In this document: in pieces, positions 22,123-27,974 of the stretch
How the letters are laid out: every line of letters starts with the position of its first letter
How positions within the stretch are numbered: the stretch's first letter is position 1
IMG/VR virus record: IMGVR_UViG_3300021426_000005
Source: a virus
Lineage: Duplodnaviria; Caudoviricetes
Length of the DNA stretch: 64,000 nucleotides
Reading direction: 5' to 3' (one strand)
The notes under the pieces: generated by a model
Database searches by the model: none
The model's input: the letters and a program-made list of their open reading frames with translations, nothing else
Told to the model about the DNA's origin: nothing
Position numbers and translations under genes: made by a program

Positions 22123-22567
22123 CCCTCCTTAAAAGTGAATTTACTTCGTCTAAATGTTCCCACTTCCAAGTACAATTCGCACAATCATTAAAAGGCGTAG
22201 AACAATGTTCACAAGTTTGACAACTATGGTCAGCACAATCGGTGACTTCACTAAGTATCTCGACAGCTGACTTCAAGCAGGATATCGCTGTATTGAAATC
22301 TTTAGAAATTTTTGCACAAGTTGCATTGCTTTCCGCTATCAGCTTCTTTGCTGAAGCTAATTCTTCGCTCATGGCATCCATACAAACCATATATCCACAT
22401 AAGAAAGTCATTACTTCTGTATCGGTATAGCCGTAAGTATTTTTGATCCGTTCAATGAAACCTTGCAACTGAGTATGAATCTCATTCGCAGATAGTATTT
22501 TTGTATCCATATCATCACTCCTATTCTTTATCGAATTCAGGCAACTCAAGATCAGATATTGCATCAA
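22091..22567 (-). CDS. Hypothetical protein with a Cys-rich C-terminal module (start probably MDTKIL)
   Basis: LKSAVEIL...CQTCEHC...CANCTWKW; C-terminal module shared with the genes at 27987-29270. Confidence 0.55.
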   Translation of the reverse strand: MMQYLILSCLNSIKNRSDDMDTKILSANEIHTQLQGFIERIKNTYGYTDTEVMTFLCGYMVCMDAMSEELASAKKLIAESNATCAKISKDFNTAISCLKSAVEILSEVTDCADHSCQTCEHCSTPFNDCANCTWKWEHLDEVNSLLRRVEYESGTKSS

Positions 22568-22988
22568 ATACAGAACTGAGCTCTTTCAGCATCTGATATT
22601 TCTTAGTGAAAGCATTAAGCTCTGAATATGCAGAAGCAAGAAGTTCAGCATATTTGTCTTTGTGCTTCACTATAACATCTATACGTTCATATGTTTTATT
22701 TTCTGATGTAGGAAAGTAAGCCCTTATCGGAACTGCTTCTGATTCTTCTGTTTCTGGAACAACGCAGAGCATTCTGATGATCTGTCCAGCTTGATGAACT
22801 CTATATTTCTCAGCTGCAACGTCATCATTCCACTCAAATTCGTCATGCAACACTGCTCCAGCATCTCGGTTTGCTTCTAGAAGTGTTTTCGGCGTAAGCC
22901 CTACTGTATCTTCTAAAGCCTTAAACTGAGCTGCCGCAAGATTGGGATCTGCTTTGATCCCTGAGATTGATTTCCATTTATATACCAT
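22521..22988 (-). CDS. Conserved phage protein; accessory gene of the RAMP + GGY-NN array locus
   Basis: LTP..LL.A......LH.EFEWNDD.AAEKYR..QA..IIR motif; starts ~30 nt after the array, AGGTGG RBS. Confidence 0.7.
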   Translation of the reverse strand: MVYKWKSISGIKADPNLAAAQFKALEDTVGLTPKTLLEANRDAGAVLHDEFEWNDDVAAEKYRVHQAGQIIRMLCVVPETEESEAVPIRAYFPTSENKTYERIDVIVKHKDKYAELLASAYSELNAFTKKYQMLKELSSVFDAISDLELPEFDKE

Positions 22989-23015
22989 TTTGCACCACCT
23001 TAAATTAAATATTAT

Positions 23016-23693
23016 GCCTGACCTGCCATACCTTACCTTACCTCACCAAACCCCACACAAACAGAACATACCTTGCCTGCCACAATGGACCTCACCTAAA
23101 CTTGACTCGCCCTGCCGCAACCGACCTTACCTGCCATATCATGCCTTACATCACCATGACTCCCTAACCCAACCTTGCCTGCCGTACCTAACCCCAACTT
23201 AACGGACCGGACCAAAACGGACCTCACCTTGCCTGCCGAAATAGACCATAAGATACCACTCCGCACCCGAACTCACCTTGCCTGCCGTACTATACCATAT
23301 CCAACACTACCACGCCTTAACTAACCAATCCACTCCTGCCACAACATAACTCACCATACCTTAACATAACTCACCACACCTTAACATATGTCATCCTACC
23401 CTACCGTGCCTGCCATACCAAACCCTACACAACCGCACCATAGCACAACTTACCTTGCCTGCCAAAACCTACCACAACTTGACTAACCAAAGCGGACCAC
23501 ACCGAACCAATCCTGCCTCACCAAGCCAAGCCGGACCTAACCCCACCTTTACATACCTCGCCTGCCAAATCAAGCCAAGCCTGAACATACCGTACCTTAC
23601 CACACCACACCAAACCCCAACCCACCAAGCCTGCCCTAACAAAACCTACCACAACTTAACTAACCAAACCTCACCTAACCATCCACGCCTGCC
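23016..23693 (-). repeat. Non-coding array of 12 units GGCA-(GGY-NN)9-14; putative guide-RNA array (VIPR-like)
   Basis: CCTGCC anchors (+ strand) at 23022, 23076, 23130, 23178, 23232, 23281, 23335, 23409, 23458, 23512, 23561, 23630, 23688. Spacings are 54,54,48,54,49,54,74,49,54,49,69,58 (10 of 12 equal 5n+4). Interiors are NN-RCC pentamers. Confidence 0.9.
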
Positions 23694-23702
23694 ATAATCA
23701 GA

Positions 23703-23730
23703 GTAAAGGTAGAAATCAATCTACCTTTAC
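23703..23730 (-). other. Perfect 11-bp hairpin at the RAMP gene/array junction
   Basis: GTAAAGGTAGA-N6-TCTACCTTTAC; the stop codon lies in the loop. Confidence 0.75.
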
Positions 23731-24399
23731 ATGATACATACCGAATTGACCATCACACTCAGGTCTCCACTCGCCTACTCCGCAAACAAGACCTCCGGCG
23801 TTGATCATGTTAATGATGTTTTCCAGAGAATATGTGCCGTTATCATTGTACTTGAGTCTGAATGTAGCTGACCAGTTGCGGAATTCACCACGGTAACGGA
23901 TATCTGCTGTACCCATGCCGATTCTTACCATATCCTCCCTCATTATAGGAGTGTCAGATTCGATTTTCAGCATATCATCGTAATCACTTTCAATGAAGAA
24001 AGCACCTCTGAGCTCGGCCTTAGACTTTGACCAGCCCATACGATATGCGGCTGAAATAGCCGCCTGTTTGAATGCTGTGACAGGAAATCCGAATGTAGCC
24101 CCAGCTTCGATAGCCTTCGTAAAGGCATTCTCGCATTCTTCCTCAGAAGCACCGTCTGCCAGATCAGGCTTATTTGAAAGCCAGTACATGGACTGAATAA
24201 AGTCATCTACCGGATTCTTAGCAGCCTTCTGCTTTCCCTTGGCTTTGCCCTGCTGTGCTTCCAGCATCATACGCTTCGCTTTCTCAGACCAGGCGTGCAT
24301 GATGAGGGGTGAGTCTCCTACCAATGTGACTTCTACCGTCTTCATCTTGATAGGTCTGATCTCTACTACCTCTGATTTTGTTGTCTTTGTGGTTGCCAT
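23716..24399 (-). CDS. Solo Cas7/Csm3-like RAMP-fold protein (putative RNA-guided effector)
   Basis: VTLVGDSPLIMH (beta1 + SPL), GFPVTAFKQAAISAA (P..s.KG helix), RGAFFI, REDMVRI thumb, RYRGEF..W.ATF, and a C-terminal Gly-rich loop GVGEWRPECDGQFG. Confidence 0.75.
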   Translation of the reverse strand: MATTKTTKSEVVEIRPIKMKTVEVTLVGDSPLIMHAWSEKAKRMMLEAQQGKAKGKQKAAKNPVDDFIQSMYWLSNKPDLADGASEEECENAFTKAIEAGATFGFPVTAFKQAAISAAYRMGWSKSKAELRGAFFIESDYDDMLKIESDTPIMREDMVRIGMGTADIRYRGEFRNWSATFRLKYNDNGTYSLENIINMINAGGLVCGVGEWRPECDGQFGMYHVKVD

Positions 24400-27074: not shown

Positions 27075-27974
27075 TTAAAGCTCCACACGAATACCTGTAA
27101 TTTCTTCAAAAACATCTGCATCGAAATTTGGAATATCCTTAACCGCAGCCTTTTCAGCATTGGTCATATTATCCCACATAAGACCACAAGCCGTTTTGAA
27201 ATCAACGGTTTTCAGATAGCCACCAGTTGTCTCGTGTTCAGGATGAGCCACTTTTTCTTCATCGGTCATGTTTTCACTATATATCCACCAGTTGTTTTCA
27301 TACTTCCAATTCATGGCTCTTACAGCAAGGAGATTATTGAAATCATCTCTGCTCATATTAGTAGGGTTATTGAAGATATATAACGGCTGTTCGATAGAAT
27401 TAAAGAAGCCTGTAGAATAATTAGTTGAGTTCCAGTTGCCGGAGTTGCGGTTGCCGGAGTTCCAGTTGCCGGAGTTCCAGTCGCCGGAGTTCCAGTTGCC
27501 GGAGTTCCAGTCGCCGGAGTTCCAGTTGCCGGAGTTGCAGTTGCCGGAGTTGCGGTTGCCGGAGTTGCAGTTGCCGGAGTTCCAGTTGCCGGAGTTGCGG
27601 TTGCCGGAGTTGCAGTCGCCGGAGTTCCAGTCGCCGGAGTTCCGGTTGCCGGAGTTGCAGTTGCCGGTACAATCTTTTCCTGTATTGGCTAAATCAAGAA
27701 CTTCGTGCCAAGCAAGTTCCTTGATAATCGTGATTTCATCTGTGACAGACTTATCATCTCTTGTCTCCGTATGACCAATAGCTTCTACTTCTGCAACCTT
27801 ATTATTGCTGTTGAAATCATAATAATTAAAACAATCAGAAATCCTTTGACAGAAGTGAAAACCTGCACCACACATCTCAATGTTACCATTATGTTTGTAT
27901 GTCTTACCAACTTTATACTGAAACCCCATGCAAGTCCAGTCAGGATTAAAAACCTTATATCCTTTAATTCCCAT
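27075..27974 (-). CDS. Pentapeptide-repeat (G[ND][CRW]NS)16 phage protein
   Basis: KGYKVFNPDWTC..FQY.VG...C..GFHFC N-terminal domain, 16 pentapeptides, conserved C-terminus (PNFDADVFEEITGI). Confidence 0.8.
   Translation of the reverse strand: MGIKGYKVFNPDWTCMGFQYKVGKTYKHNGNIEMCGAGFHFCQRISDCFNYYDFNSNNKVAEVEAIGHTETRDDKSVTDEITIIKELAWHEVLDLANTGKDCTGNCNSGNRNSGDWNSGDCNSGNRNSGNWNSGNCNSGNRNSGNCNSGNWNSGDWNSGNWNSGDWNSGNWNSGNRNSGNWNSTNYSTGFFNSIEQPLYIFNNPTNMSRDDFNNLLAVRAMNWKYENNWWIYSENMTDEEKVAHPEHETTGGYLKTVDFKTACGLMWDNMTNAEKAAVKDIPNFDADVFEEITGIRVEL
27428..27667 (-). repeat. 15-bp tandem repeat x16 (GGC RAC YGS AAC TCC), coding
   Basis: Directly visible; encodes the pentapeptides. Confidence 0.9.

Follow-up and report, generated by a model that had tools for sequence, protein, structure and literature searches.

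The window analysed here, a 64,000-nt stretch of DNA (IMG/VR record IMGVR_UViG_3300021426_000005), is a phage; around a locus in which two minus-strand genes are separated by a non-coding gap (22989-23715), with a plus strand very poor in G (71 G per 728 bases), lie genes for replication, terminase, portal, tape measure and baseplate. The same upstream gene, vipr, also occurs on a 147-kb contig, and related prophage copies were found in Clostridia and Lachnospiraceae genome bins. The features of the locus are as follows.

23716-24399, minus strand: vipr gene (P0001, 227 aa), encoding a lone Cas7-like RAMP, a putative guide-RNA coat (profile, AF2 model, Foldseek).
23703-23730, minus strand: 11-bp hairpin across the vipr stop codon, at the array head (minimum-free-energy and centroid folds).
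23028-23693, minus strand: staggered vrRNA array of 13 units, each GGCA plus 9-14 GGY-NN pentamers (Viterbi parse).
23636-23693, minus strand: unit 1, guide, with the shared block at 23641-23670 (parse); belongs to the first-unit guide family found across the clade.
23464-23517, minus strand: unit 4, guide, with the shared block at 23464-23493 (parse).
23287-23340, minus strand: unit 7, guide, with the shared block at 23307-23331 (parse).
23184-23237, minus strand: unit 9, guide that served as positive control, NN AA GA CC TT CC CC AA GG TA AC (gapped match to a DUF2188 gene).
23014-23027, minus strand: degenerate terminal unit GGCA GGTCA GGCAT, continuing into the vap ribosome-binding site (parse; conserved in all close relatives).
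22521-22988, minus strand: vap-like accessory gene (P0002, 155 aa; synteny, AF2 model).

The locus is a VIPR system, a kind related to CRISPR and already described in 2026 preprints (bioRxiv 10.64898/2026.04.26.720920). In the passages of these preprints that deal with its make-up (bioRxiv 10.64898/2026.04.26.720920 and 10.64898/2026.04.26.720927), a VIPR comprises the protein Vipr, an accessory vap gene and vrRNAs in which GGY and NN alternate; there is one Vipr protomer per repeat, with GGY buried and NN presented, and the mechanism has been solved experimentally for the family. According to the same passages, the NN pair with DNA while skipping every third base, transcription is silenced on binding, and natural targets, called at an 80% NN match, lie mostly in coding sequence, the skipped base falling at the codon wobble position.

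The protein encoded upstream of the array has no Pfam or NCBIfam family; it has 6232 homologues in one collection and 2954 clusters of homologues (50% identity) in another. Entry 36pp, "SUSP1 Vipr protein", was returned at E=7e-7 when PDB chains were searched with the single sequence, and a profile of 68 homologues matched this entry at E=8.8e-14 over residues 67-220, which is most of the protein. The AF2 model (pLDDT 95.6) gave its best Foldseek matches with Csm3/Cas7 of type III and VII CRISPR complexes (E ~3e-6, probability 1.00, TM 0.45-0.51). Residues H35, R170 and E210-W211-R212 of P0001 align with the SUSP1 RNA-contact residues H17, R138 and D177-W178-R179, which hold G1, G2 and Y3, and among the 68 homologues R170 and R212 were invariant and position 210 was always E or D. 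An array punctuated by GGCAGG follows the vipr homologue directly in 20 of 22 IMG/VR loci, down to approximately 50% protein identity, and was present in all close relatives that were fetched. Once Vipr had been identified, several candidate readings of the locus were dropped: RNA wound round a TRAP-like 10-11-mer ring, iterons or a replication origin, an R-loop/class-switch-like region, and a telomere-like repeat suggested by a sub-threshold TEBP_OB2 Pfam match on P0002 (E=0.0028).

A homologue of P0002 lies directly 3' of the array in 37 related loci, in the order vipr-array-P0002. Its AF2 model (pLDDT 89.6) had no Foldseek match at E <= 0.001, and the best hit of a wide VIA-align search (Z 5.3) was within noise. 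The N-terminal half gave weak winged-helix-like structural matches only; a winged-helix-like half, if the model is read in this way, would be in line with vap proteins that bind DNA in some VIPR types. A Cpf1 REC2 match on the protein was sub-threshold (E=0.022, 15.2 bits vs a cut-off of 27). Residues R41, H48, F51-E52-W53, A58-A59 and R63 were invariant across 16 homologues; the protein belongs to no family. In two sister loci (L042 and L048) the array is short, and after its third unit a YopX gene follows in place of the accessory gene; in L048 the latter is found further downstream.

The array was parsed on the minus strand by a Viterbi procedure with a cyclic five-state model, independently of the units proposed in the sequence-only reading, and units 1, 4 and 7 were recovered at exactly the same coordinates. 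Across the 13 units there are about 130 pentamers with conserved GGY and variable NN beside vipr, where a VIPR requires at least four. Information at pentamer positions 1 to 5 was 1.51, 0.85, 1.12, 0.15 and 0.15 bits; position 1 is G in 93% of pentamers, position 2 is G in 70% and T in 25%, position 3 is T in 80% and C in 16%, and positions 4 and 5, the NN, are nearly unconstrained. Unit lengths are mostly 5k+4 (49, 54, 69 and 74 nt), and the register is thus moved by one base at each GGCA. Unit 1 contains one 4-nt token, GGAT, and the only element constant across the array is GGCAGG. Unit 6 is stretched to 74 nt by an in-phase 20-nt tandem repeat (23343-23388, 2.3 copies, four pentamers per copy), and in-register slippage or recombination therefore acts on the array.

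In both the minimum-free-energy and the centroid fold of the array transcript, nothing was stable except the hairpin at 23703-23730, whose stem sequence is mostly retained among close relatives. Neither the parse nor the transcript folds revealed a structured or a conserved tail between units; searches of Rfam, a tRNA scan and blastn against phage records returned no matches, and a scan for promoters and terminators stayed at background level. Arrays of the clade are mosaics in which units have been gained, lost and recombined. Two sister-phage arrays are interrupted (L045:2927-3150 and L046:945-1785, the latter by a stretch with a 105-aa ORF inside), and arrays are therefore broken and rejoined by recombination. 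Elsewhere in the window, a 15-nt tandem repeat of 16 copies (27427-27667) lies inside the ORF 27075-27974 (DUF7666 plus pentapeptide repeats); this repeat is coding, and its periodicity has nothing to do with the array.

Compared with type II VIPR, as represented by Escherichia phage SUSP1 and a Pseudomonas fulva prophage in the relevant parts of three preprints (bioRxiv 10.64898/2026.04.26.720920, 10.64898/2026.04.26.720927 and 10.64898/2026.10.15.759431), the locus shares a lone RAMP homologous to SUSP1 Vipr, guides made of pentamers in which GGY is conserved and NN vary, an accessory gene downstream, carriage by a phage and, for unit 9 only, a gapped match with 1-nt skips at codon wobble positions. 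The vrRNAs of the SUSP1-like type are described in these parts as ~100 nt each with an invariant structured 3' tail, a pseudoknot, whereas here no structured tail or pseudoknot follows each guide, and units of 49-74 nt stand head to tail, parted only by the 4-nt GGCA step. The present system differs further in that a quarter of pentamers have T as the second base of the triplet, the hosts are gut and rumen Clostridia, and the accessory protein is without a detectable family. With neither a structured tail between its units nor an Rfam match, the locus falls outside type II. The architecture that it fits is that of staggered VIPR arrays as the legend of one figure outlines it: in staggered arrays, each vrRNA shares 1 nt with its neighbour and ends where the following one starts (fig. 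S18 of bioRxiv 10.64898/2026.04.26.720920), and the 5k+4 unit lengths found here are those expected of a 1-nt overlap (GGCAG/GGCAA sharing one G). The locus thus adds a well-sampled clade, from Clostridia phages of about 150 kb, to the subtype with staggered, tail-less arrays.

With the Cas7/Csm3 backbone of class 1 CRISPR systems, Vipr shares its fold (RRM core, G-rich loop and thumb) and the use of one protomer per RNA repeat step, but the period is 5 nt instead of 6, and three guide bases are buried per step, compared with one flipped out. No CRISPR repeat is present, and none of the ten neighbouring ORFs matched a cas family above threshold. Unlike CRISPR-Cas loci, the locus shows no identical repeats of ~23-50 nt with unique spacers and no cas1/cas2 or effector operon.

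To see the published code at work on a target, unit 9, the most conserved NN string in the clade, was searched against IMG/VR under the 1-nt-skip rule with 18 specified bases. There was one match (L054:1536-1564), and it agreed at 20 of 20 NN bases, including the two left out of the query. The matched sequence comprises the last eight codons (NDPFPPKG), the stop codon and the next two bases of a 72-aa DUF2188 gene on an IMG/VR phage contig (L054:1344-1562), with every skipped base at a wobble position. Chance would explain this match with a probability of a few per cent, allowing for the four guides tried. When up to two mismatches were allowed against 401 Clostridia genomes, four matches were obtained, three of which were 3' ends of DUF2188 genes (18/20, in three genomes); these are homologous to the first match and are therefore not independent evidence. 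The sole NN change in unit 9 among ten arrays falls beyond the target stop codon, and no second guide matched the regions near the DUF2188 targets. Judged by this one guide, the match supports the published VIPR code as working in this array. The proposal that the units are guides and that the NN are their selected, target-specifying part is supported by the mechanism given in the preprint passages, by the wobble-aligned match of unit 9 and by the slower change of NN in guide bodies described below. The conserved DUF2188 C-terminus offers a concrete candidate target for experiments in Gram-positive hosts. For the array as a whole, self-targeting within the 64-kb window did not rise above background, the best guide match being ~75% at every skip length.

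Units 1, 4 and 7 share part of their code. Read in the RNA sense, their blocks are GGTTT GGTTA GTTAA GTTGT GGTAG GTTTT (unit 1), GCTTT GGTTA GTCAA GTTGT GGTAG GTTTT (unit 4) and GGATT GGTTA GTTAA GGCGT GGTAG (unit 7), with the common NN run TT-TA-AA-GT-AG (CT-AC-TT-TA-AA on the plus strand) and a sixth NN (TT) common to units 1 and 4. The observation that the three units carry an identical dinucleotide series while their triplets drift was reproduced: there are no NN differences among the blocks and five substitution events, all in triplets. The further statement that the series sits at a different offset in each unit holds for unit 7, in which the block lies three pentamers closer to the 5' end, and not for units 1 and 4, in which it begins at the same token index after the GGCA marker. 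When NN were shuffled among the pentamers of the array, a shared run of at least five arose in 30 of 2000 trials and one of at least six in 2 of 2000, compared with three shared runs of that kind in the real array. Beyond the core and its TT neighbour, the NN of units 4 and 7 are unrelated to those of unit 1, and units 4 and 7 look like mosaics made from part of the first-unit guide.

The four-dinucleotide core TA-AA-GT-AG was found with perfect NN in nine distinct contexts within the clade, including the first unit of most arrays. Its triplets vary at three of the four pentamers (GTT/GTC, GTT/GCT/GTC/GGC and GGT/GGC/GGG), and the NN that flank it vary among contexts. Outside the array, the shared core is absent from the 64-kb window; a search with the core in a G-K-N pentamer context matched one IMG/VR locus, which is not an array.

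These similarities might have arisen by plain neutral duplication, in which part of a unit was copied twice recently and the changes fell in triplets by chance, with no selection on NN and no common target. The 5:0 split between triplets and NN is by itself weak evidence to the contrary, since it involves five events only and has a probability of 0.078 (0.6^5); in-register duplication does occur in this array, and the core is restricted to this clade, no array outside it having been found to carry it. Against neutral duplication, 5 of the 15 triplet sites but none of the 10 NN sites differ between units 4 and 7, the triplet figure being approximately that of unrelated pentamers, and the core has been kept in its nine contexts across phages whose vipr genes have diverged by ~0.2 at fourfold sites. 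Together with the slower change of NN in orthologous guides described below, these observations make neutral duplication an unlikely account.

The availability of ten or more sister arrays permits a direct measurement of guide evolution. Arrays from phages with Vipr at least 90% identical (the window, L023 and L040-L052) were parsed and compared, ten phages yielding 45 phage pairs and 127 pairs of orthologous guides, defined as units of equal length and at least 78% overall identity, with all five pentamer positions treated alike. Pairwise divergence in guide bodies was 0.013 at the first G, 0.072 at position 2, 0.117 at position 3 and 0.039 at NN, compared with 0.201 at fourfold sites of vipr and 0.217 at the NN of the last two pentamers. 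Among the ten related phages, the rate of change at body NN was therefore about one fifth of that at synonymous sites and one half to one third of that at triplet positions 2 and 3; the 78% identity rule depresses all guide rates relative to the synonymous yardstick but cannot produce the contrast between NN and positions 2 and 3. Minimum events in guide bodies at positions 2 and 3 combined versus NN numbered 50 and 31 at an identity threshold of 0.78 (p = 0.045), 43 and 20 at 0.85 (p = 0.005), and 36 and 11 at 0.90 (p = 0.0003).

Pooled over all pentamers, NN were not slower than triplets: minimum events at positions 1 to 5 were 6, 23, 37, 29 and 32 in 157 pentamer columns, or 66 triplet versus 61 NN events. 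NN events per site were 0.36-0.47 in the last two pentamers as opposed to 0.04-0.12 in the rest of the unit. The comparison supports purifying selection on NN in guide bodies and near-neutral change at guide 3' ends. The sequence-only reading, which had selection acting on NN and equal divergence of NN and triplets as the mark of neutral duplication, is thus supported for the bodies, where equal divergence fails, and not for the last two NN, where it holds. The passages of three VIPR preprints that we consulted contain no rule of fast terminal NN and slow bodies.

We lean towards the reading that units 1, 4 and 7 aim at variants of one conserved site. The array would be transcribed together with vipr from the minus strand and, by analogy with SUSP1, its RNA would be cut into units at the GGCA steps, with neighbouring units overlapping by one base. 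One Vipr protomer per pentamer would then coat the unit, burying G-G-Y and presenting NN; the NN would pair with double-stranded DNA in which the matching bases are parted by one skipped base, and the bound target would be silenced. For the E. coli phage SUSP1 system, the coating, pairing and silencing steps are reported as demonstrated in the corresponding parts of the preprints (bioRxiv 10.64898/2026.04.26.720920 and 10.64898/2026.04.26.720927). The three units would share a core of 4-6 dinucleotides because they belong to one guide family, that of the first-unit guide of the clade, whose copies may have arisen when part of a guide was duplicated in register or recombined. Selection for target pairing would keep the core NN, and triplet positions 2 and 3 would drift within the tolerance of Vipr (G, G or T, T or C). 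Since the flanks disagree, the three guides cannot tile one contiguous site and would have to address variants of a site; with different flanking NN, every copy would pair with its own variant of a single conserved site. The likeliest kind of site would be a codon-aligned protein motif in competing mobile elements.

Target scans of IMG/VR and the JGI metagenomes were carried out with exact matching and a 1-nt skip, whereas published natural targets, according to the preprint passages, were accepted at 80% NN; because these large collections were scanned by exact match only, a real target of units 1, 4 and 7 may have been missed. In these scans the expectation that matches to the three units would fall at homologous positions of one gene family or motif was not borne out, no credible target having been obtained. 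Units 4 and 7 had no match in either collection, and the 8 matches of unit 1 represented 2 independent loci, neither of them wobble-aligned. A merged first-unit pattern of 17 bases gave 31 heterogeneous matches, of which two, from a metagenome rich in vipr relatives, were non-coding or out of phase. Guides searched against related vipr loci outside their arrays gave no match.

Read as antisense codons, unit 1 spells [N/K]-L-T-[F/L]-Y-[N/K]-S-Y, unit 4 [N/K]-L-T-[F/L]-Y-[N/K]-G-T-[D/E]-[N/K] and unit 7 V-[I/M]-[I/M]-[H/Q]-L-T-[F/L]-Y-[N/K]-T, which combine to [K/N/Q/H]-L-T-[F/L]-Y-[N/K]-[S/G/T]. The differences in the flanks appear conservative in this antisense reading and not in the sense reading (K/N vs Q/H; S, G or T), which counts weakly in favour of the preferred reading. 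No peptide of the LTFY or FYKVS type was found in long ORFs of the window or of related loci. The first eight NN of unit 4 had more than 120 IMG/VR matches (L096-L215) in 12 independent clusters, and the best full-guide scores among them, 19/20, were as predicted by chance. Six of the 12 clusters lay in one antisense wobble phase, spelling T-[F/L]-Y-N/K-G-T-D/E-N/K, where chance expects one in six; the six fall in unrelated proteins, among them a marine outer-membrane-like family, two tail fibres and a LAGLIDADG intein in a terminase.

The shared core could alternatively be a leftover of guide building, older guide blocks having been recombined into new guides with unrelated targets, in which case it would be uninformative about what the three units address. 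That the arrays of the clade are mosaics agrees with such an origin, as does the size of the core, which with 5-6 of 10 NN falls short of the 80% NN at which targets are called in the VIPR preprint passages. A block without function, however, should drift like the unit ends (0.22 per site), and the core NN are invariant in nine contexts; we regard unrelated targets as improbable, slightly more so than neutral duplication. Finally, we consider it very improbable that the array holds no guides and serves instead in protein binding or replication, as iterons, an R-loop origin or RNA around a TRAP-like ring. Such a role was suggested by the 5-nt period, the 49- and 54-nt units and the G-rich coding strand, but the protein next to the array is homologous to Vipr and has its RNA-contact residues conserved, the NN of unit 9 spell a gapped target without mismatch, and the mechanism of the Vipr family, in the preprint passages, has been solved experimentally.

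A broader and more tentative proposal, which is possible though we would not expect it, is that the guides of staggered VIPR arrays become diverse with no machinery for acquisition, as NN blocks are duplicated in register and recombined, and that the arrays so build mosaic panels of guides covering allelic variants of one conserved protein motif, with the first eight or so NN as the selected body and the last two approximately neutral. The selection on NN in guide bodies, the near-neutral 3' ends and the part-shared guide codes provide testable hints as to how VIPR repertoires evolve and which guide positions are important. Several guides with overlapping specificity in one array resemble multiple CRISPR spacers directed at one protospacer region; unlike such spacers, the guides examined here share only part of their code and seem to have been internally duplicated or recombined and not acquired from the target.
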